Made by a program: the position numbers and the translations under genes
DNA from: an uncultured Opitutaceae bacterium
GTDB taxonomy: Bacteria > Verrucomicrobiota > Verrucomicrobiia > Opitutales > Opitutaceae
Assembly (NCBI GenBank): GCA_964496645.1
Contig: CAZCAJ010000023.1
Coordinates: 1 to 54,934 of the forward strand
Direction of reading: 5' to 3'
DNA length: 54,934 nt
The notes under the pieces: generated by a model
Told to the model about the DNA's origin: nothing
Seen by the model: only the letters and a program-made list of their open reading frames with translations
Database searches by the model: none
In this document: positions 2,295 through 15,086 of the stretch, piece after piece
Position numbering within the stretch: position 1 is the first letter of the stretch
Layout of the letters: each line of letters begins with the position of its first letter

Positions 2295-3539
2295 TCACTT
2301 CCCGCGGGCGGGAAGGGGCATCACCCAGCCGGGCGGGTTCACGGGGACGACCACGCGCTCCCCGGCGCGGATCCTGGGGGCGTAGCGGCTCCAGTGCATG
2401 TCCGCATAGGCGGGCTCGCGGTCCCTCGGGGCGTTCGCCAGGAGCCCGATGACCACGAGGGCCGCGGCCGCCCTCCCGGCCCGGCCCCCTTCGTCCGCCG
2501 TGACGAGGAGCAGCCATATCGCGACCAGCTGCGGGATGAAGACGTACCGCGCGTGTGCCAGCGGCTCGAAGTACTCGCCAAGCGTGTATCGCGTCCTGAC
2601 GAAGGCCCCGAGGAGCATCGCTGCGAACGCGAGACCCAGGAGGGCCCGCTCCGCCCGGAGCCTGCCGGGCCTGAAGGCCATGTATCCCACCCCCGCGAGG
2701 GTGGCGACGCCCGCGACGGTCCCGATGACAACGTCCGTCTCGGGGGCCATGAGCGAGCCGAGGACGATGGAGGCGCCTATCCTGCGCGCGACCGCGGGAA
2801 GGAAGAGCCGGGCCGCGATCGTGTGAGCCGCGTGGGGATCCCCGGGAAACGGGGGCTCGACGAGGACCAGGGCGAGCTGGACGACGGCGCAGGCGGCGAC
2901 GATGGCCGCGAGGACAAGGCTGGCGCGCGTCCTTCGGCTCCACGCCCGCCAGGCGAACAGCGGGGCGAGGATGATGCAGAACGGGCCGGTCAGGCCCAGG
3001 AGCGCTGCGGCGGCGACGTCGTGGGCCCACTGGCCCGCGCGCCCCGGGTCGCGCGAGACAAGGAGCAGGATCAGGCCGGCCGCCAGCACCCACTGGAGGT
3101 TCACCACGTTGAGGAACACCTCGTACGTGTCGGGGACGAGGACGACGGCGAGGGCGCAGGCGCCGGCGAAGCGGGGGAGGGGGCAGCGCCGCGACAGCGT
3201 CCGGGCCGCGACATAGAGCGTGGCGGCGCCCGAGGACGCCACGAAGATCGCCGGCGCGCGGGCGGGGTCGATCGCCACCGAGGCCTGCGCGATCATCCGC
3301 AGGACCGTGTGGAGGTACCCGGCGAACGGCTCGAGGAATGCCTTCCAGCCGAACACGTAGGCCCGCTCGAAGAAATAGGCGTCCTCGGCCCAGAACTGGG
3401 GGTTCGTCAGCGCCTCGGCCCGGCGCAGGCCGAGGATGACCGCGCACGCCGCGAGGACCGCGGCCGCCGGGGGATCGGCGAGGAGGCGCGAGAGCCGCTC
3501 GCGCGCCGTCAGGGCGCGGCTTGGGAGGACCTCGACCAT
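2295..3539 (-). CDS. Polytopic integral membrane protein of unknown function (about 414 aa, at least 9 predicted TM helices), last gene of the caa3 oxidase operon
   Basis: Long hydrophobic ORF. Internal ATG at 3539 (MVEVLPSRAL...) chosen as start because upstream in-frame sequence is Arg/Pro-rich low-complexity. It overlaps the ctaG stop by 31 nt on the same strand. Motif NPQFWAEDAYFFERAY lies in loop 1. Confidence 0.55.
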   Translation of the reverse strand: MVEVLPSRALTARERLSRLLADPPAAAVLAACAVILGLRRAEALTNPQFWAEDAYFFERAYVFGWKAFLEPFAGYLHTVLRMIAQASVAIDPARAPAIFVASSGAATLYVAARTLSRRCPLPRFAGACALAVVLVPDTYEVFLNVVNLQWVLAAGLILLLVSRDPGRAGQWAHDVAAAALLGLTGPFCIILAPLFAWRAWSRRTRASLVLAAIVAACAVVQLALVLVEPPFPGDPHAAHTIAARLFLPAVARRIGASIVLGSLMAPETDVVIGTVAGVATLAGVGYMAFRPGRLRAERALLGLAFAAMLLGAFVRTRYTLGEYFEPLAHARYVFIPQLVAIWLLLVTADEGGRAGRAAAALVVIGLLANAPRDREPAYADMHWSRYAPRIRAGERVVVPVNPPGWVMPLPARGK

Positions 3540-4294
3540 TTGAAGAAGCAGACTCCGAGCACGGTCAGCGACACGGCCATTCCCACGGATTTCATGATGA
3601 TGCCGGCAAGCAGCTGGTCGTCGGCGGGCGTGAACCCGGCGATCAGCCTCGGCGCATACTCGTAGGTCGGATAGAGAATGTCGCGCGAAAACACGATGTA
3701 GGCCGAGACCGGGATCATGGCGATCTCGGTCCCGACCGCGTAGAGCATGCGCACCCCGTAGCCCGGCGACGGAAAGGCCGCCGAGGGGCTCGCGAGCGGC
3801 CACCAGTACAGGAGCGACGCCGCGAGGAACATGAGGTGCTCGCCGACGTGGGCCAGCTTGTCCTGGAGCGTCCACTCGTAGAGCGCCGGCACGTGCCAGA
3901 GGCTTATGACCGCCGTCGAGACGACCGCGCAGGCGAAGGGGCTGAGGAGCATCCGCAGCGGCGTGCGCAGCACGGGCCGGGATAGGACCGGGTCCGCCAT
4001 CCAGGCCGGGGTCCCCAGCAGGATGAGCAGCGGCACCGGGTACATGATGAGCAGGTGCTGCGCCATGTGCGCCGACAGCAGGAAGCGCTCGCCGACCTGG
4101 TCGAGCGGCGAGCCGACGGCGAGGTAGAAGATGGCTAGCGCGCCGTAGAACCCGACCGCCTGCCCGCGCGGGAAGGGCCTCCCGGGAGCGAGCATCGCCC
4201 TCAGGGGCCCGGCAAGGATCGCGTAGAGCCAGCCGGCGAGGATGAGGCCGCCCGTCAGGAACGGCTCGTTGTGCCAGTGCCGCCAGTCGATCAT
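3509..4294 (-). CDS. ctaG: Cytochrome c oxidase caa3-type assembly factor CtaG (Caa3_CtaG family membrane protein)
   Basis: 261 aa multi-TM protein; MAQHLLIMYPVPLL and WHVPALYEW motifs are typical of Bacillus-type CtaG; located after the subunit genes in the operon. Confidence 0.75.
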   Translation of the reverse strand: MIDWRHWHNEPFLTGGLILAGWLYAILAGPLRAMLAPGRPFPRGQAVGFYGALAIFYLAVGSPLDQVGERFLLSAHMAQHLLIMYPVPLLILLGTPAWMADPVLSRPVLRTPLRMLLSPFACAVVSTAVISLWHVPALYEWTLQDKLAHVGEHLMFLAASLLYWWPLASPSAAFPSPGYGVRMLYAVGTEIAMIPVSAYIVFSRDILYPTYEYAPRLIAGFTPADDQLLAGIIMKSVGMAVSLTVLGVCFFKWSRSSQAAP

Positions 4295-4327
4295 CTTTTC
4301 GCCCGGACGGCCGGCCGGGCGGCCGGT

Positions 4328-4693
4328 TCAGGCGGCCCTGGCGGCCATCGCCGGAGGGGCCGCCGCCGCGAGCGGCTTGCTTGCGTCAGCCCCGAAGAGC
4401 TTGAGGAGCGCGATCATCGTCCCGGCCGCGAGGACGAGGCCGATGAAGAACAGGATCGTGCAGAACGCCCTGTCCCAGCGCAGGTGCATGAAATAGAAGA
4501 TGACGAACATGAACTTCACGGTCGAGAGGACGACCAGCACCGAGAACAGGATCCACCTCATGAAGGGCAGGTAGACGGTGACGAGCTCAAGGCCCGTGAT
4601 GACGGCGAGGAGCATCGCTATCTGGACGAAGATCCAGAACTTGCTCTGCTCGAGCTCGTGGCCCTGGGAGGGGGCTGCTGCGTGGGTGCTCAT
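4328..4693 (-). CDS. ctaF: Cytochrome c oxidase subunit IV (prokaryotic CoxD/CtaF type)
   Basis: 121 aa protein with 3 TM helices; the ...FMFVIFYFMHLRW... region is typical of bacterial aa3/caa3 subunit IV; lies between subunit III and ctaG. Confidence 0.7.
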   Translation of the reverse strand: MSTHAAAPSQGHELEQSKFWIFVQIAMLLAVITGLELVTVYLPFMRWILFSVLVVLSTVKFMFVIFYFMHLRWDRAFCTILFFIGLVLAAGTMIALLKLFGADASKPLAAAAPPAMAARAA

Positions 4694-4717
4694 GTCGGCA
4701 TTCGGCGTTGGAGGGGG

Positions 4718-5338
4718 TCAGATGTACTCGAGCAGGTACACGGCCGTGAAGATCACGATCCAGACGATGTCGACGAAGTGCCAGTACAGGCCCATCGACT
4801 CGACGTCTATCGCCTCCTTCTCGGTCAGCCGGCCCGTGAACGAGTAAAGGAGCATCCCGCTGAGCCAGATCACGCCCACGAGCACGTGGAGGCCGTGCGT
4901 CCCGGTCAGGGTGAAGAACGTGGTGCCGAGGATGCTGTTCGTGATCGTCAGGTGCTTCTCGTACACGAAGTTCCTGAACTCGTAGACCTGGCACCCGAGG
5001 AAGATGCACCCGAAGAAGATCGTCGTCAGCAGCGACCAGCGCATGCTCTTCAGGTTCCCCTTCTGGATCGCGTTGACGGCGAGCGCCATCATCAGGGACG
5101 ACATGAGCAGGATGAAGGTCGAGAACGACGTCAGCTCGATGCTGAAGACCTGCCTTGCCGGCGGGGTCCCCGGGGGCGGGTGAAGCCGGTAGATCAGGTG
5201 CGTCGAGATGAGGCAGCCGAAGAACATGCAGTCCGAGGCGAGGAAGGCCCACATGAGGACCTTCTTGTTCGGGATCCCGGTCGAGGTGGTCGGATCGAAA
5301 TGGTGGTCGATCGTGGCTGTCGCCGCATCGCTGCTCAT
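4718..5338 (-). CDS. ctaE: Cytochrome c oxidase subunit III
   Basis: 206 aa; conserved HHFDP, WAFLASDCMFFG and FTLTGTHGLHVLVG motifs. Confidence 0.9.
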   Translation of the reverse strand: MSSDAATATIDHHFDPTTSTGIPNKKVLMWAFLASDCMFFGCLISTHLIYRLHPPPGTPPARQVFSIELTSFSTFILLMSSLMMALAVNAIQKGNLKSMRWSLLTTIFFGCIFLGCQVYEFRNFVYEKHLTITNSILGTTFFTLTGTHGLHVLVGVIWLSGMLLYSFTGRLTEKEAIDVESMGLYWHFVDIVWIVIFTAVYLLEYI

Positions 5339-5369
5339 GGGGATTGGGTCGGCCGGGGGCCTCGGCTCC

Positions 5370-7361
5370 TCAGTGGTTTGACGGGTAGCCGCCGTGGGCG
5401 TCGTCGCCCGTCACGGTGCCGTCCTTGTCCAGGTGGATGTGGGTGCCTTCGCAGCCCTCGAGCGACCAGAGGACGATCGAGACGAACATGATCGCCCCTC
5501 CCGCCAGCGTGACGGCGATCTTCGGGCCCCAGAACCCGGGGTAAAGGTTGTGGTCGGCAGGGTCGACGATGGCCGTGCCGATCGCGCCGATCATGATGCC
5601 GACGCCCGCGAGGAACGGGTAGATCGACTGGAACGGCATGTGTATCCCCCCATGCGCCTCCTCGGCCTTCGCGTGTTCCTCTTCCTCCCTCGAGACCTCG
5701 TCCGCGTGGCGCTTCTCGTACCACCAGCCGTCGCGCGCGTGGATCGTCGGTATCACCCGGAAATTGTACTCGGGGACCGGGTTCGGGAGGCTCCACTCGA
5801 GCGTCCGTGCGTCCCACGGGTCCTTGCCGGTGCGCTCGCCCCTGTAGTACGTGTAGACCATGGTGACGAGGTAGACCCCGATCCCGCCGGCTAGGATGAA
5901 CGCCCCCACCGATGAGATCATGTTCCCCAGGTTCCAGCCCATGTTCCCGTCGTAGGTGTACGTGCGCCGGGGCATGCCCTCGAGGCCCAGGAAGTGCATG
6001 GGGAAGAACGTCGCGTTGAAGCCGATGAAAACCAGCCAGAACGACGCCTTGCCCCAGAGCTCGCTCACCTTGCGGCCGAACATGAGCGGGAACCAGTAGT
6101 GTATACCCGCCAGGAGGGCGAAGAGCGATCCGCCGATGAGGACGTAGTGGAAGTGGGCGACGACGAAATAGCTTCCGTGCTGCTGCATGTCGGCGGGCGC
6201 CGCGGCGTGCATGACCCCGGAGAAGCCGCCTATCATGAACATCCACAGGAACCCGAGGGCGAACATCATCGGGGTGCGCATGCTCAGGTGGCCCCCCCAG
6301 AGCGTGCCTATCCAGTTGAATATCTTGACGCCCGTCGGCACGGCGATCGCCATCGTCATCAGCGCGAAGGCCGCGTTGGCCACCGTGCCCAGGCCGGAGG
6401 TGAACATGTGGTGGCTCCAGACGCCGAAGCCGAGCAGGCCGATGCTTGCGCCGGAGAAGACGACGATGGGGTACCCGAACAGGGGCTTCCTGGAGAATGT
6501 CGGCAGGATCTCCGAGATGATCCCCATCGCCGGGAGGATGAGGATGTACACCTCCGGATGCCCGAATATCCAGAACAGGTGCTGCCAGAGGATCGGCATG
6601 CCGCCGTTGGAGACCTCGAAGAAGTTCGTGCCGAAGAGCCGGTCCATCATGATCTCCACGAGGGCGATCGTGATCGCGGGGAAGGAGAGGATGATCAGGA
6701 ACGAGGTGAAGAGCGTCATCCAGGTGAACACGGGCAGCCGCATCATGGTCATACCCGGCGCGCGCATGTTGATGATCGTGACGATGAAGTTGAGCGCGGC
6801 CGCGATGGAGGCCACCCCGAGCAGCTGCAGCCCCATGACCCACATGTCGATCGCATGGGTCGGGCTGAACGCCCTCGTCGTGAGCGGGGCGTAGCCGACC
6901 CACCCGGCGTTGGGCACGCCGTCCTTCATGAACCAGCCGAGGTTCACGATGATCGCGCCCACGAGGAACGTCCAGTACGAGAACGCGTTCAGCCGCGGGA
7001 AGGCCACGTCGCGCGCCCCGATCTGGAGCGGCATCACGAAGTTGAAGAACGCCGCCCCGATGGGCATGACGACGAGGAAGATCATCGTCGTCCCGTGCAT
7101 CGTGAACATCTCGCTGTACTGCGCCGACGTGAGGAACGTGTTGTTCGGGACCGCGAGCTGGATGCGGATGAGCAGCGCCTCGATCCCCCCCATGACGAGG
7201 AAGAAGAGCCCGGAGGCGCCGTAGAGGAACCCGATCCGCTTGTGGTCGACCGTGGTCAGCCAGCTCAGGAGGCCCGTCTTTGCCGTCGGGCGCCAGAGGA
7301 CGAGGGGCTTCGCGGGCTGCTGGCCCTTCGCGAGGAAGTCGGACTTGGCAATGGCTTCCAT
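5370..7361 (-). CDS. ctaD: Cytochrome c oxidase subunit I (heme-copper oxidase catalytic subunit) with an extra C-terminal extension of about 150 aa containing 2 TM helices
   Basis: WLTTVDHKRIGFLY, GHPEVYILILP, and the HHMF and HFHYV histidine ligand motifs. Start at MEAIAKSD (ATG 7361); the upstream in-frame Arg-rich 90 aa is judged non-coding. The C-terminal tail ends His-rich (HIHLDKDGTVTGDDAHGGYPSNH). Confidence 0.9.
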   Translation of the reverse strand: MEAIAKSDFLAKGQQPAKPLVLWRPTAKTGLLSWLTTVDHKRIGFLYGASGLFFLVMGGIEALLIRIQLAVPNNTFLTSAQYSEMFTMHGTTMIFLVVMPIGAAFFNFVMPLQIGARDVAFPRLNAFSYWTFLVGAIIVNLGWFMKDGVPNAGWVGYAPLTTRAFSPTHAIDMWVMGLQLLGVASIAAALNFIVTIINMRAPGMTMMRLPVFTWMTLFTSFLIILSFPAITIALVEIMMDRLFGTNFFEVSNGGMPILWQHLFWIFGHPEVYILILPAMGIISEILPTFSRKPLFGYPIVVFSGASIGLLGFGVWSHHMFTSGLGTVANAAFALMTMAIAVPTGVKIFNWIGTLWGGHLSMRTPMMFALGFLWMFMIGGFSGVMHAAAPADMQQHGSYFVVAHFHYVLIGGSLFALLAGIHYWFPLMFGRKVSELWGKASFWLVFIGFNATFFPMHFLGLEGMPRRTYTYDGNMGWNLGNMISSVGAFILAGGIGVYLVTMVYTYYRGERTGKDPWDARTLEWSLPNPVPEYNFRVIPTIHARDGWWYEKRHADEVSREEEEHAKAEEAHGGIHMPFQSIYPFLAGVGIMIGAIGTAIVDPADHNLYPGFWGPKIAVTLAGGAIMFVSIVLWSLEGCEGTHIHLDKDGTVTGDDAHGGYPSNH

Positions 7362-7369
7362 CGGGCGGC

Positions 7370-8635
7370 TCACTTGAGGCTCTCGAGGAAGGCGACCAGG
7401 GCGTCCTCGTCGGCGGGCGTCAGCTTGATGCTGTTCGCGAGGTACCCGTTCACCCACATCTTGTTGCCGGGCTTCACCTCGTTCGGGGCGTGGATCCAGC
7501 GGTGGAGCTCGTCGCGGTTGTTCTCGAGGAGGCCCCCGGCGATCGTCGTGCGCGCGCCGACGTGGGTGAGCTCGGGCCCCTGGATCCCGACGGCGCCGTC
7601 CAGCCCGCGGATCGTGTGGCAGCTGGCGCAAGTCTTAGACACGAAAAGGCCGCGGCCCTTCGCGATCAGGGCCGGATCCTCGTCCTTCCCGGGAAGCTGC
7701 TGCGCCCGCCAGGCGTCGAGCGGGGACACGTCGAACTTGTCGGTGTAGCCCGGCTCGTTCCGGCGGAACTCGCGGTAGGCGGCAAACTGCGCCCTCGGGG
7801 GGGCCCCGGCGGAGGCGACCGCGGCGGGGACGCCGCGGGCGGGCGCCGCCTGCGCGCTGAGCCAGTCGTAGAATTCCCTCGGGCTGAGCGCGATCACGCG
7901 GAACCGCATCACCGCATGCGACTCGCCGCAGAACTCCGCGCACTGCCCCCAGAAATACCCGGGCTTCTCCGCCTTGATCCAGAGGGAGTTGCCGCGGTTG
8001 GGCACCATGTCCACCTTGCCGGCGAGCTTGGGGACCCAGAAGCTGTGGATGACGTCGACCGTGCGCAGGTTGACGTGGACCGGCCGGCCGGCCGGGATCA
8101 CGAGCTCGGAGCCCGTCGTCAGCGGGGCGCTGACGAGCTTGCCCGTCGCGTCGGGCGCCTGGGCCGTCTCGTTTGGATAGTCGAACTTGAACCACCACTG
8201 GTAGCCGGTGGCCGTGACCTCGTACGCGTCGGCCCTCTCGGCCTCCGGGACGTCGTAGGTGTACCAGACGCCCTTGAGGGTGGGGATGGCGATGATGACC
8301 AGCGAGAACACGGAGGCCGCGATCAGGCTCACCTCCACTACCGGGTTGCCGTGGTGCTGCTCGGGCGGCTCGGCGTGCTCGTCGGAATCGCTGCGGGCCC
8401 TGAACCTGATCATCGCGTAGGCCAGGGCGCTGCCGACCAGGATGAAGATCGCCAGCGTCACCCAGCACGTGACGTAGAACAGGTCCAGCTGCTCGCGCGC
8501 GACCGGGCCGTTGGGATCGAAGGTCGACTGCGGGCCGTCCAGCCAGAAGCATCCCGACAGGAGCGGCAAGGCGGCTAGGGCCGCGGCCGAGACGGCCCGT
8601 CGGAGGAGGCGGGTGGGAGGGTCCTTTAAACGCAT
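7370..8635 (-). CDS. ctaC: Cytochrome c oxidase subunit II with fused C-terminal mono-heme cytochrome c domain (caa3-type CtaC), lipoprotein
   Basis: CuA motif H...CAEFCGESHAVM; C-terminal CASCH heme-binding motif; N-terminal lipoprotein signal ...ALPLLSGC. Start at MRLKDPP (ATG 8635) preferred over the upstream ATG at 8704. Confidence 0.88.
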   Translation of the reverse strand: MRLKDPPTRLLRRAVSAAALAALPLLSGCFWLDGPQSTFDPNGPVAREQLDLFYVTCWVTLAIFILVGSALAYAMIRFRARSDSDEHAEPPEQHHGNPVVEVSLIAASVFSLVIIAIPTLKGVWYTYDVPEAERADAYEVTATGYQWWFKFDYPNETAQAPDATGKLVSAPLTTGSELVIPAGRPVHVNLRTVDVIHSFWVPKLAGKVDMVPNRGNSLWIKAEKPGYFWGQCAEFCGESHAVMRFRVIALSPREFYDWLSAQAAPARGVPAAVASAGAPPRAQFAAYREFRRNEPGYTDKFDVSPLDAWRAQQLPGKDEDPALIAKGRGLFVSKTCASCHTIRGLDGAVGIQGPELTHVGARTTIAGGLLENNRDELHRWIHAPNEVKPGNKMWVNGYLANSIKLTPADEDALVAFLESLK

Positions 8636-8862
8636 TTGTGCAGTCGCAACTGAGCGGCGCCCCGAGGGGGGGCCGACAGAACGCGAAGTACAGTCAGCGA
8701 ACATCCGGGCATTTCAAGCCATATTCGGACAGATTTTTCGCCTCCAAGCCAAGCGGAGCCGCCCCGTCCGGCCCCGGGGGCGGACGTTCCGGCACCGCCG
8801 GGCCCTCGCCGCGAGTGTTTCGATTTGCGATTGGGGCCGGCCTGGGCGAGCGTTTCCGCCCG

Positions 8863-9345
8863 ATGAATACACGACTTCTTCTCCTCACTGCTGTTGTCTC
8901 AATTGTCGCTTCCGGCTGCGGCCAGAAGGACTCGTCGACGGCGGGCGCGGCGACCCCGGCCGGACCCCGCGAGATAGACATCACGGCGGGAGACACGATG
9001 AAGTACAGCATCACGGCGATAGAGGCCAAGCCGGGCGAGGACATCAAGGTGGTCCTGACGAACACCGGCACGCAGCCGAAGGAGGTCATGGGTCACAACT
9101 GGATCCTCCTGAAGGCGGGTTCCGACGTCGCGGCGTTTGACGCGGCCGCCCTCAACTCTAAGGACACCGGCTACGTCCCCGCCGCGCTCAGCGACGAGAT
9201 CATCGCCCACATCGACCTCCTGGGGCCCCGCAAGTCGGGCGAGATCGAGTTCCAGGCGCCCACGACGCCGGGCGACTACAACTTCCTGTGCACGTTCCCG
9301 GCCCACTACCAGGCGGGGATGAAGGGCGTGCTCACCGTCAAGTGA
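8863..9345 (+). CDS. Azurin-like type-1 (blue) copper protein, lipoprotein
   Basis: Lipobox IVASGC; the azurin signature MGHNW(I/V)L and C-terminal FLCTFPAHYQAGMKGVLTVK match the azurin Cys/His/Met ligand set; divergent from ctaC. Confidence 0.85.
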   Translation: MNTRLLLLTAVVSIVASGCGQKDSSTAGAATPAGPREIDITAGDTMKYSITAIEAKPGEDIKVVLTNTGTQPKEVMGHNWILLKAGSDVAAFDAAALNSKDTGYVPAALSDEIIAHIDLLGPRKSGEIEFQAPTTPGDYNFLCTFPAHYQAGMKGVLTVK

Positions 9346-9444: not shown

Positions 9445-9879
9445 ATGAGCTGGGAGAATGAAAGCCACTACGTCAGCACCGATCCCGGGCTCCTCGACCT
9501 CGACTTCGTGTGCGCGGCGCTTGCCGGGTCCTATTGGGCGCAAGACCGCCCCCGCGACGTGATCGCGCGGTCCATCGGGGCCTCGCTCTGTTTCGGGCTC
9601 TACGAGAAGCGGGGCGGCAGACAGGTGGGCTTCGCCCGGGTCGTCACGGACGCCGCGACCTTCTCGTGGCTGTGCGACGTCGTCGTGGACGAGCGCCACA
9701 GGGGCAAGGGCCTCGGCAAGTTCCTGCTGTCGTGCGTGGTCGCCCACCCGCACGTGAGCTCCACCAAGTGCCTCCTAGCCACCCGCGACGCGCACGCCCT
9801 CTACGAGAAGTTCGGCTTCGCCCGGGCCGAGCAGATGAGGCGGCCGCCGACCGAGGCGCGGCCGCAGGCCCGGGCGTAG
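9445..9879 (+). CDS. GNAT family N-acetyltransferase
   Basis: 144 aa; acetyl-CoA binding motif RGKGLGKFLL and a GNAT-fold pattern. Confidence 0.75.
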   Translation: MSWENESHYVSTDPGLLDLDFVCAALAGSYWAQDRPRDVIARSIGASLCFGLYEKRGGRQVGFARVVTDAATFSWLCDVVVDERHRGKGLGKFLLSCVVAHPHVSSTKCLLATRDAHALYEKFGFARAEQMRRPPTEARPQARA

Positions 9880-9886
9880 CCCTTCT

Positions 9887-10321
9887 CTACCCGCGCTGAG
9901 GCCACCACCGGTACAGGAAGAAGTAGACGAGGACGCCCGTCACCGACACGTAGTACCAGATGGGAAACGTGACGCGGGCCCATGCGCGGTGGCGCTCGAA
10001 GTCCCCCTTCAGGGCGAAGACGAACGTCCGGGGCACGAGGAACGCGATGAGCCCGGCCAGCGGGATGTGGGTCCAGAGGATGGCAAGGTACACCCCGCGG
10101 ATGGCGCCGGCCCCGCCGAAGGGCGTGTGGGCCCCCCTCATCATGGCGTGATAGGTGACGTAAAAGACTAGGAACAAAGCGGATGCCACAGCCGCCGCTA
10201 GCATGCATGCGCGGTGGGCCCCGCGGTCGCCCCGCTTGATGAAGACGAATCCGGCCGTTATCAGGATGGTGGCGATCCCGTTCAGCGCGGCCTCGATCGA
10301 GGGAAGGTCGTGCACGTTCAC
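9887..10321 (-). CDS. DUF420 membrane protein (CtaM-like cytochrome oxidase accessory protein)
   Basis: 144 aa with 4 TM helices, about DUF420 length. GTG start at 10321 overlaps the ctaB stop (GTGA). It is the third gene of the ctaA-ctaB unit, the same context as Bacillus CtaM. Confidence 0.6.
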   Translation of the reverse strand: MNVHDLPSIEAALNGIATILITAGFVFIKRGDRGAHRACMLAAAVASALFLVFYVTYHAMMRGAHTPFGGAGAIRGVYLAILWTHIPLAGLIAFLVPRTFVFALKGDFERHRAWARVTFPIWYYVSVTGVLVYFFLYRWWPQRG

Positions 10322-11208
10322 GGCCGGCTCAGGAGCAGCCTGTCCCCGACGAGCAGGCCAAGGAGCAGGGGGAGGTAGGCCAGCGAGAAGAGGAAGAGCC
10401 TTCGGGCGCCCGCGTCCCGCGACGCCGGCCTGAGGAACGCCGCCGCCCTCCACAGGAAGCACGCGCCGACCGCGAGCGCCGCGGCGCCGTACCACCGGCT
10501 GGCAAGCCCGAGGAACGCAGGGAGCACGCTCACGACCGTCAGCGCGGCGGTCGCGGCGAGCGACCAAAGCGCGACCTTCCCGCCCGACTCGTCGCGCACG
10601 GGCAGCATCGGGAAATGCACTGCGGAATAGTCGCTCCTGTAGGTCCAGGCGATCGCCATGAAGTGCGGGATCTGCCAGAGGAAGAGGATGCCGAAGAGGA
10701 TCCAGCCCAGGGCCGAGACCGCGCCCTGTGCGGCGGACCAGCCTATCAGCGGCGGGAGCGCCCCCGCGATCGCGCCGATCTCGGTGCTCCACAGGCTCCA
10801 GCGCTTCGCCGGCGTGTACCAGCCCAGGTAGAAGGCGATCGTCAGGAGGGTGAAGAGGGCCGCGAGCCTGCCGACCTCCATGAATATGAGCATCAGCGCC
10901 GCGATGCACATGAGCCATCCGAGGACGAACGCCGAGCCCCCCGCGACCCTGCCCGTCGGGATCGGCCGCAGCGCCGTGCGCCGCATCCGCGCGTCCGTGT
11001 CGCTCTCCATCCACTGGTTGAGCGAGGCGACGCCGCCGGCGGCCAGCGAGGTTCCGACGACGAGGAGCCCGACCCGGAGCGGGTCGAACGCGGGCCGCGC
11101 CGCCACGTAGCCCACGAGCGCCGTCATGACCGACAGCAGGCTCAGCCGCGGCTTGGTCAGCTCGAGGTAGTCGCCGAATCGCGCATGCGCGGGAGCTGCG
11201 TCCTTCAT
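10318..11208 (-). CDS. ctaB: Protoheme IX farnesyltransferase (heme O synthase)
   Basis: 296 aa UbiA-family protein with 9 TM helices; FGDYLELTKPRL N-terminus and a conserved Asp-rich region; ATGA overlap with the ctaA stop. Confidence 0.9.
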   Translation of the reverse strand: MKDAAPAHARFGDYLELTKPRLSLLSVMTALVGYVAARPAFDPLRVGLLVVGTSLAAGGVASLNQWMESDTDARMRRTALRPIPTGRVAGGSAFVLGWLMCIAALMLIFMEVGRLAALFTLLTIAFYLGWYTPAKRWSLWSTEIGAIAGALPPLIGWSAAQGAVSALGWILFGILFLWQIPHFMAIAWTYRSDYSAVHFPMLPVRDESGGKVALWSLAATAALTVVSVLPAFLGLASRWYGAAALAVGACFLWRAAAFLRPASRDAGARRLFLFSLAYLPLLLGLLVGDRLLLSRP

Positions 11209-12185
11209 GGGATGGTCCGCCCCTCGATCGCGTCGCGGTGGGCGAGCCACGTGAGCCAGAAGGCGGCGACGAGGGTGAGCGCCCCCACCACCACGTGGCC
11301 CGTCGTGACGCCGACGGCGCGGTAGGTCCGGATTATCAGGGCCCCGAGGAATATCTGGAGGGCGACCAGGCTGACGAGGGCCGAGGCGCCGGAGCGCATC
11401 CCGGGCGACGCCCCACGGTCCCGCCAGACAGCGACCGCGAACCCCGCGATCGCCAACGCGACGGCGCACGCCATGGCGCGGTGGGCGAACTGGATGGCGA
11501 CCTGGAAGCTCCACGCCGCGGGCAGCAGGCCGCCCGCGGGCGTCGACCATGGGAACGTCGGGATCGCCAGGCCTGCGAAGCTGTGGCGCACGACGGCCCC
11601 GATGGCGAGCTGCGCGAAGAGCAGGGCGCAGCAGAGGACCCCCATGCGCCTCGCCCCTTTGCCGACCGGCATGGGCCTCGTGATCCACCCCCTCGAGCAG
11701 GAAACGGCCAGCGCGACGAGGGCGCAGGCGAAGGCCTGCGCGAGGCAGGCGTGGAGCATCGCAATCAGCCGGCCGAGGCTCGTGTCGAGGGGCTCGATGT
11801 GGATCCGGTCGAGCAGGACGCGGAGCCCGCCGACGACCGCCTGGGCGACCACGAGGCCGAGCGCAAGGTACGAGAGCCTGCGCAGCCACGCCCTCTGCTC
11901 GGTGCGCCAGAGCCAGGCGGCGAGGACGAGGGTGAGGGCCGTCATCATGCCCGCGCTCAGCCGGTGCGAGTGCTCGGCGAACATCGACAGGTTCGTGAGC
12001 CAGCCCTCGGGGTTGAGCGAGCCGTTCGAAAGCGGCCAGTCCGGGAACGCCATTCCCGCGTTGATCGTCGTCGTGAAGGCGCCGAGCGCCACCAGCACGA
12101 AGACCCAGGCCGCGGCAAAGGCCGAGAACGCAGCGAGCGCCGGCCTGTATGAGGCGTTTTGCTGGTGATCGGGCCGTGCGTCCAT
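11205..12185 (-). CDS. ctaA: Heme A synthase (COX15/CtaA family)
   Basis: 326 aa with 8 TM helices; paired His motifs (AEHSHR and FAHRAMA) typical of type-2 CtaA; upstream of ctaB. Confidence 0.85.
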   Translation of the reverse strand: MDARPDHQQNASYRPALAAFSAFAAAWVFVLVALGAFTTTINAGMAFPDWPLSNGSLNPEGWLTNLSMFAEHSHRLSAGMMTALTLVLAAWLWRTEQRAWLRRLSYLALGLVVAQAVVGGLRVLLDRIHIEPLDTSLGRLIAMLHACLAQAFACALVALAVSCSRGWITRPMPVGKGARRMGVLCCALLFAQLAIGAVVRHSFAGLAIPTFPWSTPAGGLLPAAWSFQVAIQFAHRAMACAVALAIAGFAVAVWRDRGASPGMRSGASALVSLVALQIFLGALIIRTYRAVGVTTGHVVVGALTLVAAFWLTWLAHRDAIEGRTIP

Positions 12186-12271
12186 GAGCGGGGGGAATGA
12201 GCAGAAGAAGGCAACATCGTGCCCGCCTCAAACGCTTTGACAAATTTTTCCTCGGGCGGATTGGTGTCTCC

Positions 12272-13177
12272 ATGCGAACCACTGCCGGGCGCCAACTCCT
12301 TGCGTGCGCGGCGCTGGCCGCGCTCGCGTCGGGCGGCTGCGGGAGGGGGACCGGGGGAGCCCCGGCCGTCTCCTCCGCGCCCCCCGGCGAGAGGCGCTTC
12401 GCCCTTTCGGGGGAGATCCTCTCGGTCGACGCCAAGCGGAAGGTCCTCGTCGTGCGGCACAACGAGGTCGCCGGCTACATGCCCGCGATGACCATGGAGT
12501 TCCCGGTCTCCGCGGGCGACGCGGCCGCCGCGAGGCCCGGCGAGCGGATCCGGGCGGAACTCGTGGTGGAGCGGGGAGGGGCCCTCCGGCTCGAGAGGAT
12601 CTGGCCAAACGACTCGGTCTCCCTCGACACGATCGACGCGGGCGCCCGCATGCTCCGCCAGGACACGCTTGCGAAGGGCGGTGCGGCCTTCAGGGAGGTC
12701 GGCGAGAGGGCTCCGGAGTTCGTGCTCTACGACCAAAACGGCCGCGTCGTCAGCAGCGCGCGCTTCCGCGGCAAGCAGATCATGCTCAACTTCATCTACT
12801 CGCGCTGCCCGGTGGCGAACATGTGCCCGCTGTCAACGGCGAAGATGATGGCCGCGCAGAAGCTCGCGAGGGAATCGGGCGTGGGCGACATCGAGTTCGT
12901 ATCGGTCACGATGGACCCGGCGTACGACACACCGGGAGTCCTCAGGGATTACGCCGACCAGCGGGGGATAGACACGTCCAACTTCTCCTTCCTGACCGGC
13001 CCCGAGGCGGCGATCCGGGACCTGCTGGCGCAGTTCGGCGTGATCGCGGAGTTCAGGGGGAACATCCTCGACCACACGCTGGCGACGCTCCTCATCGACG
13101 AGAAGGGCCGGATCGCGTGGAGGGCCGACGGGAGCGCCTGGGAGCCGAGGGAGTTCGTGGAGCGGATGCACCGGTGA
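12272..13177 (+). CDS. SCO1/SenC-family copper chaperone fused to an N-terminal CusF-like Cu(I)-binding domain; lipoprotein
   Basis: Lipobox LASGGC. The N-terminal about 110 aa carry the CusF-type motif HNEVAGYMPAMTMEFPV. The C-terminal thioredoxin-fold SCO domain has the metal-site His in the DHT motif, but an atypical C-x5-C (SRCPVANMCP) instead of the canonical CxxxC. Confidence 0.8.
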   Translation: MRTTAGRQLLACAALAALASGGCGRGTGGAPAVSSAPPGERRFALSGEILSVDAKRKVLVVRHNEVAGYMPAMTMEFPVSAGDAAAARPGERIRAELVVERGGALRLERIWPNDSVSLDTIDAGARMLRQDTLAKGGAAFREVGERAPEFVLYDQNGRVVSSARFRGKQIMLNFIYSRCPVANMCPLSTAKMMAAQKLARESGVGDIEFVSVTMDPAYDTPGVLRDYADQRGIDTSNFSFLTGPEAAIRDLLAQFGVIAEFRGNILDHTLATLLIDEKGRIAWRADGSAWEPREFVERMHR

Positions 13178-14106
13178 CGGACGGCGGGGACACACCGAGA
13201 ATCGGGGCCCGCGAGTGGCGCCAGATCGCCGCGATCACGGCGTCGGCGATCCTGCTATTCCTCGTCGTCCGCGAGCTGCCGACGGGGACCAACCTGAGCC
13301 ACATGGACTTCCGGGTGCAGGGCGCGAACACCATCGAGTTCTGCGACCCGGCCAACCCCCAGTTCCTGCCTGTGGTCGCCGTGCGCTCGCCGGTGTCGCT
13401 CACCGTGTCTACGCCCTCGCCGCCGCGGGCCGGCTCGGAGGTGGCGGCGACCCTGGTCCTCACCACCTTCAGCGGCAAGCCGATCGCGCCGGAGGACCTG
13501 CAGGTGGTCCAGACGAGGCGCGTACACCTCCTGATCGTCGACCCGTCGCTCGACGACTACCAGCACGTGCACCCGGTGCCGGGCCGCAGGCCAGGCGAGT
13601 GGGAATTCAGCTTCCGGCCGCGGTTCGGCGGGGCCTACCGGATCTTTGCGGACTTCACGCCGGTCGCCACGAACCGCGGACTCTACTCGGAGACCGAGAT
13701 GGGCGTAGCCGGGGCGCCCAGCCCGGTGGCCGCGGGATCCCAGCCGCGGTCGTGGGCCTGGGCGGGGGACGGATACCTCCTCGAGCTCTCGCCGGGCGCG
13801 CCGCCGATACGCGCGGGATCACCGGCCGACCTCAGGCTCGTCATCACGGCGACCGGAGGCGGCCCGGTGCCTCTGGAGACCGTCATGGGCGCGTATGCGC
13901 ACCTGGTCGCTTTCGACGCGCAGAGGAGCGGATTCGCGCACATCCACCCGCGGGAGGCCGACGTGACCCGCCGGCCCGATCCCCTGCGCCCGGCCTTCAC
14001 GTTCAGGCTGATGATCCCGCATCCCGGCCGGTACGTCATCTGGAGCGAGGTGAACCTGGCCGGCAAGCTCACCTTCGCCCCCTTCTGGTTCGACGTGAGC
14101 CCGTGA
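13174..14106 (+). CDS. Periplasmic or membrane-anchored protein with two internal repeats carrying H-x-H-P motifs; putative copper-handling protein (YtkA/FixH-like?)
   Basis: GTG start at 13174 overlaps the SCO1 stop (GTGA). N-terminal TM or signal anchor IAAITASAILLFLVV. Two repeats of about 100 aa align to each other (HLLIVDPSLDDYQHVHP...GAYRIFADF versus HLVAFDAQRSGFAHIHP...GRYVIWSEV). No confident family match from memory. Confidence 0.55.
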   Translation: MTDGGDTPRIGAREWRQIAAITASAILLFLVVRELPTGTNLSHMDFRVQGANTIEFCDPANPQFLPVVAVRSPVSLTVSTPSPPRAGSEVAATLVLTTFSGKPIAPEDLQVVQTRRVHLLIVDPSLDDYQHVHPVPGRRPGEWEFSFRPRFGGAYRIFADFTPVATNRGLYSETEMGVAGAPSPVAAGSQPRSWAWAGDGYLLELSPGAPPIRAGSPADLRLVITATGGGPVPLETVMGAYAHLVAFDAQRSGFAHIHPREADVTRRPDPLRPAFTFRLMIPHPGRYVIWSEVNLAGKLTFAPFWFDVSP

Positions 14107-14112
14107 CCCGGA

Positions 14113-14892
14113 TCAGAACTTGAGGTGCTTGACCGTCAGCCCCTTGTTGATGAGCTGGTTCAGGGAGTCGATGCCGATGTTCAGGTGCATGTCGACGAAC
14201 TTCTCCTCGACCCTCATGTCGCTCTCGATCGTCTTCACGCCCTCGGGGACCATCGGCTGGTCCGACACGAGGAGGAGGGCGCCAGTCGGGATCTCGTTTG
14301 CGAAGCCGACGATGAATATAGTCGCCGTCTCCATGTCGACGGCCATGACGCGGATCCTCTTCAGGTACTTCTTGAAGTCGTCGTGGTGCTCCCAGACCCG
14401 CCGATTGGTCGTGTACACCGTGCCCGTCCAGTAATCGAGCGCGCGGTCCCGGATCGTCGTCGAAATCGCCTTCTGGAGCGCGAAGGCGGGGAGGGCGGGG
14501 ACCTCCGGCGGGAAATAGTCGTTGCTCGTGCCCTCGCCGCGGATGGCCGCTATCGGCAGGATCAGGTCGCCGACCTCGGCGCGGTGCTTGATCCCGCCGC
14601 ACTTGCCGAGGAAGAGCGCCGCCTTCGGCCTGATCGCGCTGAGCAGATCCATGACGGTCGCCGCGTTGGCGCTTCCCATCCCGAAATTGATGATCGTGAT
14701 CTTGCCCGCCGTGGCGGTGGGCATCGGCTTCTCCCGGCCGTGGACCTGCACCTTCTGCGCCCTGGCGAACAGGTCCACGTACCGCTGGAAGTTGGTGAGC
14801 AGGATGTACTCGCCGAACCTCTCCAGGGCCACCCCCGTGTAGCGAGGGAGCCAATTCTCGACGATTTCACGGCGTGTCTTCAGGGCGCACAT
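14113..14892 (-). CDS. PNP/UDP-phosphorylase-family protein, short AMP-nucleosidase-like (catalytic domain only)
   Basis: 259 aa. Resembles the C-terminal catalytic domain of AMP nucleosidase (GKCGGIKHRAEVGDLILPIAAIRGEGTS; MAVDMETATIF) and lacks the N-terminal regulatory domain. Confidence 0.7.
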   Translation of the reverse strand: MCALKTRREIVENWLPRYTGVALERFGEYILLTNFQRYVDLFARAQKVQVHGREKPMPTATAGKITIINFGMGSANAATVMDLLSAIRPKAALFLGKCGGIKHRAEVGDLILPIAAIRGEGTSNDYFPPEVPALPAFALQKAISTTIRDRALDYWTGTVYTTNRRVWEHHDDFKKYLKRIRVMAVDMETATIFIVGFANEIPTGALLLVSDQPMVPEGVKTIESDMRVEEKFVDMHLNIGIDSLNQLINKGLTVKHLKF

Positions 14893-15086
14893 AGGGGCGT
14901 GCCGGACCGGCCGGGGCGCACGCGGGCGCCTCGCGGGGCCTCGGGATCTTCCCGCCTGCAGCGGCCTCCGCTCCTTGGTGCGCCTGTGGGGTGGGTCGGC
15001 AAATTGGACGAGCCAGTAGACAGAGACATCCGCGCGGAGCGCAAGCAGTTTGGTCGCGCCCCGGGGGCGCGCGAGGCGCCGGCCCG

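Follow-up and report, generated by a model that had tools for sequence, protein, structure and literature searches.

The protein designated X here is encoded by a stop-free open reading frame (ORF) of 310 codons at positions 13174–14106 (plus strand, stop codon included) of a contig from an uncultured Opitutaceae bacterium (CAZCAJ010000023.1, assembly GCA_964496645.1; the whole stretch analyzed, of 54,934 nucleotides (nt), is termed the window). On balance, we favor the view that X is anchored as a type-II membrane protein, binds copper in the periplasm, and acts as a partner of Sco in supplying copper to the caa3 oxidase, with the CuA site of CoxII as the most likely recipient. A periplasmic copper relay to Sco and/or CoxII is the most likely role because X has two domains remotely related to YtkA, each with an invariant cluster of three His residues (plus a fourth His or Met), because the same module is fused to, or encoded beside, copper proteins, and because translation of X appears to be coupled to that of Sco within a cluster for oxidase biogenesis. 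The parts of this proposal differ in strength: copper binding is very likely; a partnership with Sco or the oxidase is probable; and service to CuA specifically is a close call that we place slightly on the doubtful side.

Domain Architecture and Conserved Residues

In the AlphaFold2 model of X, built on a 46-sequence alignment (predicted local distance difference test score, pLDDT, 83; predicted template-modeling score, pTM, 0.76), a helix at residues 12–34 is followed by a low-confidence stretch (residues 35–70) and two beta-sandwiches (approximately residues 75–179 and 195–309). The helix, together with a hydropathy maximum at residues 17–37, identifies a single N-terminal transmembrane (TM) segment (residues 12–34; 13207–13275), in agreement with the membrane anchor proposed in the initial annotation of this DNA. 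Because Arg9, Arg13, and Arg16 precede the helix, the positive-inside rule predicts that X is likely to adopt an N-in/C-out topology, with the bulk of the protein in the periplasm. Beyond the helix lie a juxtamembrane segment (residues 35–73; 13276–13392; LPTGTNLSHMDFRV...EFCDPANPQFLPVVAVRSP) and the two beta-sandwich domains, as delimited by the model, family profiles, and conservation: domain 1 (residues 74–180; 13393–13713) and domain 2 (residues 195–310; 13756–14103), all on the plus strand.

The two domains are homologous to each other, as had been claimed for two units of about 100 amino acids (aa): the halves of X align by BLASTP (E = 2e-7, 35% identity over 60 aa), and the family profiles of domains 1 and 2 align by hhalign with a probability of 98.9% (E = 1.2e-17, 100 columns). 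Each domain contains the motif H-x12-H-x-H-P, with H118/H131/H133 in domain 1 and H243/H256/H258 in domain 2; the initial annotation had recognized this cluster in both units and its conservation, which stand, but had miscounted the spacing as x13. A fourth candidate ligand is situated five residues before the first cluster His, at position 113 in domain 1 and at M238 in domain 2. The complete clusters on the plus strand are Q113 (13510–13512), H118 (13525–13527), H131 (13564–13566), H133 (13570–13572), and P134 in domain 1, and M238 (13885–13887), H243 (13900–13902), H256 (13939–13941), H258 (13945–13947), and P259 in domain 2; the hhalign alignment pairs position 113 with M238, H118 with H243, H131 with H256, and H133 with H258. 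In the DSSP pattern of the model, H118 is on one strand of a hairpin, and H131 and H133 are on the return strand; reasoning from this pattern, with residue 118 opposite residue 133, the three His side chains would face one side.

Conservation was assessed across 76 Opitutales sequences (75 from 80 fetched loci, plus the window protein). X contains eight His residues and one Cys (C57), and seven of the eight His, the Cys, and Met238 are invariant. The full set of invariant residues comprises H43, D45, C57, and D58 in the juxtamembrane segment, as well as H118, D123, Y129, H131, H133, P134, M238, H243, D248, H256, H258, and P259. Position 113 is more variable, being His in 58 sequences, Gln in 15 (the clade of the window), and Asn in three. 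For the wider family, sampled by 120 diverse representatives, the His/Met cluster positions are approximately 87–91% conserved, and position 113 is His in 87%. Because position 113 is mostly His in the family, domain 1 typically has four His residues, and domain 2 has three His plus Met. The best-conserved part of X across the Opitutales set is the juxtamembrane segment (mean column identity 0.86, vs. approximately 0.70 for the domains), yet this segment is modeled as disordered (pLDDT <50), a combination typical of a motif for partner docking or metal-induced folding. More distant TM-type members have the pattern C-x-x-L-H...C in the juxtamembrane segment.

Coupling to sco and Synteny With Oxidase Genes

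The sco gene (12197–13177, plus strand) immediately precedes X, and encodes a CusF-like domain (residues 70–137; 12404–12607; Pfam CusF_Ec, E = 7e-10) fused to a Sco domain (residues 173–305; 12713–13111; Pfam SCO1-SenC, E = 4.6e-24). The GTG start codon of X (13174–13176) overlaps the TGA stop codon of sco (13175–13177) within the sequence GTGA (13174–13177), and a Shine–Dalgarno-like GGAG is present within the 3' end of sco (13159–13162, plus strand), 11 nt 5' of the GTG. We take this overlap, as did the initial annotation, to be predicted translational coupling from sco to X. A scan of 11900–14500 found no sigma-70-like promoter, and hence none between sco and X; the same scan found one terminator-like site, on the minus strand, and shuffled sequence yields as many.

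The canonical Sco motif is CXXXCXnH (PMC9145763). The Sco protein encoded with X matches PF02630 strongly but has a non-canonical Cys motif, CPVANMCP (C204-x5-C210-P; 12806–12829, plus strand), with a downstream His recognizable by eye (LDHTLATLLID). The spacing C-x5-C-P, rather than CxxxC, is found in 79 of the 82 sco genes of the fetched loci, and recurs in distant Sco proteins (CDQPQMCP, CTQPAMCP), with the second Cys always preceded by Met. These C-x5-C-P Sco proteins may constitute a subfamily that co-evolved with X. The CusF-like motif MxAMxM is encoded by 65 of the 82 sco genes, and CusF_Ec also matches the sco product of a more distant locus (L084).

In the window, sco-X adjoins an island of caa3 oxidase and heme A genes at 3.5–12.2 kb, confirming by Pfam the oxidase context noted in the initial annotation. 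The caa3 oxidase genes (3509–8704, minus strand) encode Caa3_CtaG (3509–4294), CoxIII (4718–5338), CoxI (within the ORF 5370–7631), and a CoxII-cytochrome c protein (7370–8704). Divergent from sco-X is a ctaM-ctaB-ctaA block (9887–12185, minus strand; DUF420, E = 5e-41; UbiA, E = 1.8e-51; COX15-CtaA, E = 5.5e-34), which functions in oxidase and heme A biogenesis and is syntenic with sco-X across Opitutales. This synteny is based on a scan of GTDB species genomes, in which 440 loci were confirmed and the best 80 were kept, all from Opitutales (53–81% identity). Every one of the best 80 loci with upstream DNA has the order cox genes, cupredoxin gene, ctaM-ctaB-ctaA, sco-X, with sco immediately 5' of X, and the gene 3' of X varies. 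The 4-nt overlap between sco and X is the commonest arrangement (40 of 73 Opitutales loci).

Seven distant TM-type homologs (33–42% identity) were also compared, of which five have sco directly upstream (L081, L084, L093, L095, and L096), with the 4-nt overlap retained in L081, L093, and L095. In both L081 and L084 the order is ctaM-ctaB-ctaA, then sco, then X, and L081 additionally has COX2 and cupredoxin genes; L095 has COX2 and ctaB-ctaA, followed by sco-X-ctaM; and in L096 sco is directly 5' of X. The sco-X pair in L093 is located among unrelated housekeeping genes, away from any cox gene; because this pair stands apart, sco-X itself is the conserved unit. All named members of the TM-anchored subfamily belong to Verrucomicrobiota, class Opitutia, and cultured carriers of X include Rariglobus hedericola and Oleiharenicola lentus.

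Regarding gene boundaries, the listed sco start (ATG 12197) is just 11 nt from the start of the divergent ctaA (12185). An alternative ATG at 12272 opens MRTTAGRQLLACAALAALASGGC, which resembles a signal or lipoprotein sequence, and with this start the divergent promoter region would measure 86 nt; ATG 12272 is probably the true start of sco, as judged from these sequence features. The reading frame of X remains open for 870 nt further 5' of its start, within sco, which gives rise to a spurious 600-aa ORF (12304–14106). A public 662-aa protein that resembles a Sco-X fusion (P0171) was rejected as a gene call of the same spurious kind, frameshifted and in the wrong frame, from a high-GC contig.

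A Large Unnamed Family in Copper Loci

X belongs to a large family, with 2005 homologs in a 90%-clustered protein collection; among the 120 matches listed, all are unnamed or "hypothetical" and lack Pfam domains. When 1.84 billion representatives at 50% identity were searched with a profile, 3360 matched at E ≤ 1e-3, including 308 at E ≤ 1e-30. The two-domain module is spread across Verrucomicrobiota, Bacteroidota, Legionella, Firmicutes, Actinomycetota, cyanobacteria, and haloarchaea (at least 3,360 clusters at 50% identity). X itself has no Pfam or NCBIfam match, even at E ≤ 10, and no NCBIfam model covers the two-domain module in 10 diverse members, which upholds the earlier statement that the repeat is not a named family. 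Literature searches on the family, including combinations of DUF3347 with copper and of YtkA with FixH, found none; nor do the titles and abstracts of papers on staphylococcal plasmid copper loci describe this gene.

Longer or secreted members have the two-domain module fused to HMBD (PF19335), to DUF3347, or to His-rich leaders, and a Tsukamurella member is annotated in its record with a fused HMA-type domain. The HMBD has its match in the N-terminal metal-binding domain of CopA, a Cu(I) ATPase of Legionella (3RFU/8OVL). For YHS, there was one weak match (E = 0.013) among 65 members, and other C-termini appear TRASH/YHS-like by eye.

The genomic contexts of these members likewise suggest copper. 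Secreted members are encoded directly after OEP-MFP-RND operons in two loci (L082 and L085); on a Legionella plasmid a member is beside a cluster encoding RND, TolC, and P-type ATPase proteins; and on a Hymenobacter plasmid a member precedes genes for an HMBD protein and a TolC-MFP-RND set. The Tsukamurella member precedes a P-type ATPase, a haloarchaeal member is beside a copper ATPase, and the member in Nostoc PCC 7120 is within a cluster encoding Csp, ATPase, cupredoxin, MerR, and HMA proteins. In Staphylococcus epidermidis plasmid SAP110A (NC_013383.1; L088 5248–5904), a 218-aa "hypothetical" protein is encoded by the fourth gene of the series csoR-copA-copZ-X; it matches the hidden Markov models of both domains and keeps both HxHP motifs. 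In total, 96 Staphylococcus plasmids, many from clinical isolates, have a match to the module. Three of the 11 secreted-type contexts lack metal genes (Priestia plasmids and the contigs of P0199 and P0240). Because it is widely used in copper export and resistance, the two-domain module is a general copper-handling module rather than one specific to CuA.

Three observations could have spoken against the copper-site interpretation in the initial annotation: absence of the repeat at the structural level, loss of the His cluster in orthologs, or orthologs mainly outside copper and oxidase contexts. Instead, the repeat is present at the level of profiles and the model, the His clusters are invariant, and relatives are overwhelmingly in sco/oxidase or copper-resistance contexts. 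The proposed role in CuA assembly is likewise supported as an interpretation, with X as a candidate for this function.

Proposed Function and Alternatives

For the favored function of X as a Sco partner, a mechanism can be proposed in which the His3(+His/Met) clusters would bind copper. The His-rich site of domain 1 would suit Cu(II), and the His3Met site of domain 2 could also take Cu(I); a division of Cu(II) and Cu(I) between these dissimilar sites is speculation. Copper would be captured in the periplasm or received at the membrane via the H43/C57 segment, which might, again as speculation, serve for copper entry or for docking to a membrane partner, CtaM for instance. Copper would then be passed from X to the CusF-Sco protein and/or directly to apo-CoxII, and the predicted 1:1 coupled translation of sco and X would reflect a stoichiometric working pair.

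Several points weigh against this proposal. The structural matches of X are generic Ig-like ones, and both copper binding and the geometry of the His clusters are candidate properties, inferred from the residues and the model. In the clade of the window (15 of 76 sequences), the fourth ligand of domain 1 is Gln, not His. The Sco partner already bears a CusF-like Cu(I) domain, such that a separate Cu(I) donor may be redundant. Two TM-type homologs are not beside sco: one (L083) has ctaM 3' of X and no sco, and the other, from the cultured Rubellicoccus peritrichatus (L100; CP136920.1, 10001–10867), lies in overlap with an aminotransferase gene, with sco, cox, and copper genes all absent within 10 kb of it. 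All sco-linked members are from the single class Opitutia, so the synteny could be partly inherited rather than selected. Finally, copper-efflux and resistance loci harbor the module just as readily, and its context therefore supports copper handling generally, not CuA specifically.

The strongest alternative, itself unlikely, is that X is a general periplasmic copper buffer or detoxifier (compare CusF, CopC, and Zcp) and that the link to sco stems from a wider role of Sco in copper homeostasis. The TM-anchored subfamily departs from such a role in having a TM helix and the H43/C57 segment rather than a signal peptide with HMBD or a His-rich leader. In the Opitutales loci examined, X is encoded with sco, ctaA, ctaB, ctaM, and cox genes, and never next to pumps or ATPases, and coupled translation with Sco suggests a stoichiometric partner rather than a bulk buffer.

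Less probable still is that X works for the branch of CuB/heme a3, or that it receives copper on the periplasmic side from a membrane exporter (DUF420/CtaM or Caa3_CtaG), with the juxtamembrane segment docking to it; such a role may be likened to the unexplained one of FixH in fixGHIS. Roles of Sco in CuB have been reported as well. The gene for DUF420/CtaM is among the syntenic genes of Opitutales and is adjacent to X in L083 and L095, the strong conservation of the apparently disordered juxtamembrane segment is as would be expected of a docking motif, and FixH gives sub-threshold matches in two of 65 members. Furthermore, CtaM has been proposed as a copper exporter (PMC13344008). Yet the tightest and most frequent neighbor of X is sco, not ctaM or ctaG, the sco-X pair of L093 has no ctaM nearby, and Sco is classically tied to CuA (PMC9145763).

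That X is not primarily a copper protein is very improbable: binding of another metal (Zn, Ni, or Co) at the His triads would fit the promiscuity of His3 sites (Zcp binds Zn, Cu, Co, and Ni) and the export of Zn, Co, and Cd by Czc-type RND pumps, and a TlpA-like thiol-redox or scaffold role of Cys57 in keeping the C-x5-C Sco reduced would fit an invariant Cys and the non-canonical Cys motif of the partner, but the partners and neighbors that can be typed are copper-specific (the CopA HMBD, CopZ, CsoR, annotated copper-translocating ATPases, cupredoxins, and Csp), a lone Cys cannot make an intramolecular redox pair, and the conserved Met in the domain 2 cluster favors Cu(I).

Beyond the role of X as a Sco partner, we advance a broader proposal that is tentative and, taken as a whole, rather doubtful. 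By this proposal, the tandem H-x12-H-x-H-P module would define a large unnamed family of extracytoplasmic copper-relay proteins. The TM-anchored version in Opitutia would be dedicated to the CusF-fused, C-x5-C Sco, its His4-type and His3Met sites carrying Cu(II) and Cu(I) for the binuclear CuA center, and would replace PCuAC and CtaK. In other phyla, the module would fill the place of the periplasmic chaperone still missing for Cus-like pumps and for CopA exporters.

Other Genes of the Locus

A gene for a cupredoxin of the azurin/plastocyanin family (8860–9345; Pfam) is located between coxII and ctaM in the window. Of the Opitutales loci that extend to this point, most have it in synteny, and it is also present in the distant L081. 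The cupredoxin is possibly a dedicated electron donor, or a further copper client of the cluster. A GNAT acetyltransferase gene (9445–9879; Pfam) lies between the cupredoxin and ctaM genes. Because only L001 and L002 among the 80 Opitutales loci have a match to it, this gene seems to have entered the conserved cluster recently. On the other side of X, a convergent PNP_UDP_1 (AMP-nucleosidase-like) gene ends 6 nt past X.

Comparison With Known Copper-Binding Families

The copper-delivery proteins for cytochrome c oxidase vary by bacterial lineage and are partly known; PCuAC and CtaK are regarded as unrelated proteins that perform the same job, and more factors are expected (PMC9145763). In Verrucomicrobiota (class Opitutia), X is a concrete and testable candidate for such a protein, and cultured carriers of it exist. 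X also exposes a large unannotated family of two-domain His-site proteins that recurs in copper export and resistance operons of bacteria and archaea, and that includes a gene of widespread staphylococcal plasmids still labeled "hypothetical." Naming and characterizing the module would improve the annotation of copper homeostasis loci, and might explain how copper passes to and from pumps in the periplasm or extracellularly.

The initial annotation had likened each domain to the Ig-like domains of YtkA/CtaK or FixH. Relatives of X support this likeness by weak but consistent profile matches, while the window protein itself gives none. In a Pfam scan of 65 diverse members at E ≤ 10, sub-threshold matches were to Filamin (11 members), YtkA-like (four; best E = 8.4e-4), and FixH (two). 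The closest approach is a Hymenobacter member, which matches PF13115 (YtkA-like) over model positions 3–82 of 85 in the His-bearing core of domain 2, with a score of 25.8 bits (E = 1.7e-5) against a gathering cut-off of 25.9 bits. The sub-threshold PF13115 matches of other members fall on one domain or the other, such as domain 1 of a Priestia member (E = 0.036). We read each domain as a probable remote homolog of the YtkA-like branch of Ig-like (E-set) domains, and not as a member by the curated threshold, which the window protein does not reach. With the PF13115-matching Hymenobacter domain as query, just four close relatives were found; no relatives of YtkA/CtaK were found in the PDB; and a Bacillus thuringiensis plasmid match to the YtkA search is a gene fragment. 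Searches of PDB sequences with the family profiles gave nothing, or chance matches to alpha-crystallin (E ≥ 0.01).

In Bacillus subtilis, CuA assembly requires CtaK (YtkA), a membrane-tethered His/Met protein, together with Sco (PMC9145763; PMC13344008). Like CtaK/YtkA (PF13115, also the C-terminal domain of YcnJ), X is a membrane-tethered extracytoplasmic protein built on small beta-sandwiches with conserved His and Met. CtaK acts with Sco in assembling CuA of the caa3 oxidase; for X, the tie to sco is one of genomic association. Unlike CtaK, X has two tandem domains, a TM rather than a lipid anchor, and an additional His/Cys-bearing juxtamembrane segment, and it is from another phylum (Verrucomicrobiota, class Opitutia). 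Conserved His/Met residues, His118 among them, are needed for CtaK function, and the invariant His and Met of X are candidate counterparts.

PCuAC (PF04314, DUF461) of proteobacteria delivers Cu(II) and Cu(I) in turn for CuA (PMC9145763; PMC13344008), and its gene often adjoins sco (PMC9145763). It likely has the same job as X, that of a Sco partner providing CuA copper through His/Met ligands. PCuAC differs from X in being a soluble, single-domain protein with a cupredoxin-like fold and the motif H(M)X10MX21HXM. This motif is absent from X, also when the spacings are relaxed, and X has no match to PF04314 at E ≤ 10.

FixH (PF05751; fixGHIS/ccoGHIS) and X have in common a TM anchor, a periplasmic Ig-like part, and a gene located with those for copper delivery to a heme-copper oxidase. 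The two sub-threshold FixH matches have E ≥ 0.07, and the Hymenobacter member has been named "FixH family protein" by the Prokaryotic Genome Annotation Pipeline (PGAP). X itself has no FixH profile match, and its neighbors are sco, ctaA, ctaB, ctaM, and cox genes, with no fixG, fixI, or fixS. FixH presumably has one domain and no HxHP clusters. The resemblance to CopC/PcoC/CrdA amounts to 7% sequence identity, and X has no Pfam match to CopC (PF04234). CrdA has no His and a Met-rich loop, and CopC has an N-terminal His brace or a Met loop, unlike X.

Zcp of Neisseria (DUF4198, PF10670), which buffers periplasmic metal, resembles X in having a triad of HxH plus a distant His on a beta-sandwich; it binds Zn, and in crystals also Cu, Co, and Ni. 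Zcp differs from X in its 3-layer sandwich, its one site per subunit, and its place in a zinc regulon, and PF10670 has no match in the window protein or in 75 scanned members. A Foldseek comparison of X with Zcp gave E of approximately 3e-6 and TM-scores of 0.24–0.31, the same level as for antibodies and transglutaminases. The Foldseek matches to Zcp/DUF4198, transglutaminase, and Fab structures (TM-scores of approximately 0.2–0.3) were rejected as a generic likeness of two Ig domains. In L085, a DUF4198 gene (14250–15050) adjoins that of a cation P-type ATPase, and the metal island that holds them also encodes a member of the X family fused to DUF3347; because they share this island, both kinds of beta-sandwich His protein can co-occur.

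CusF is a functional analog of the secreted, HMBD- or DUF3347-fused relatives that are encoded right after OEP-MFP-RND genes. Its OB-like fold is unrelated to that of X and its site is of the Met2His type, and in the window a CusF-like domain is part of the neighboring Sco rather than of X. The role proposed for X is that of the lipoprotein CtaK (YtkA) in Bacillus and of PCuAC in proteobacteria. X is not categorically new, but is a divergent, duplicated, TM-anchored variant of the CtaK/YtkA-like copper chaperones, from a large family that no database names.

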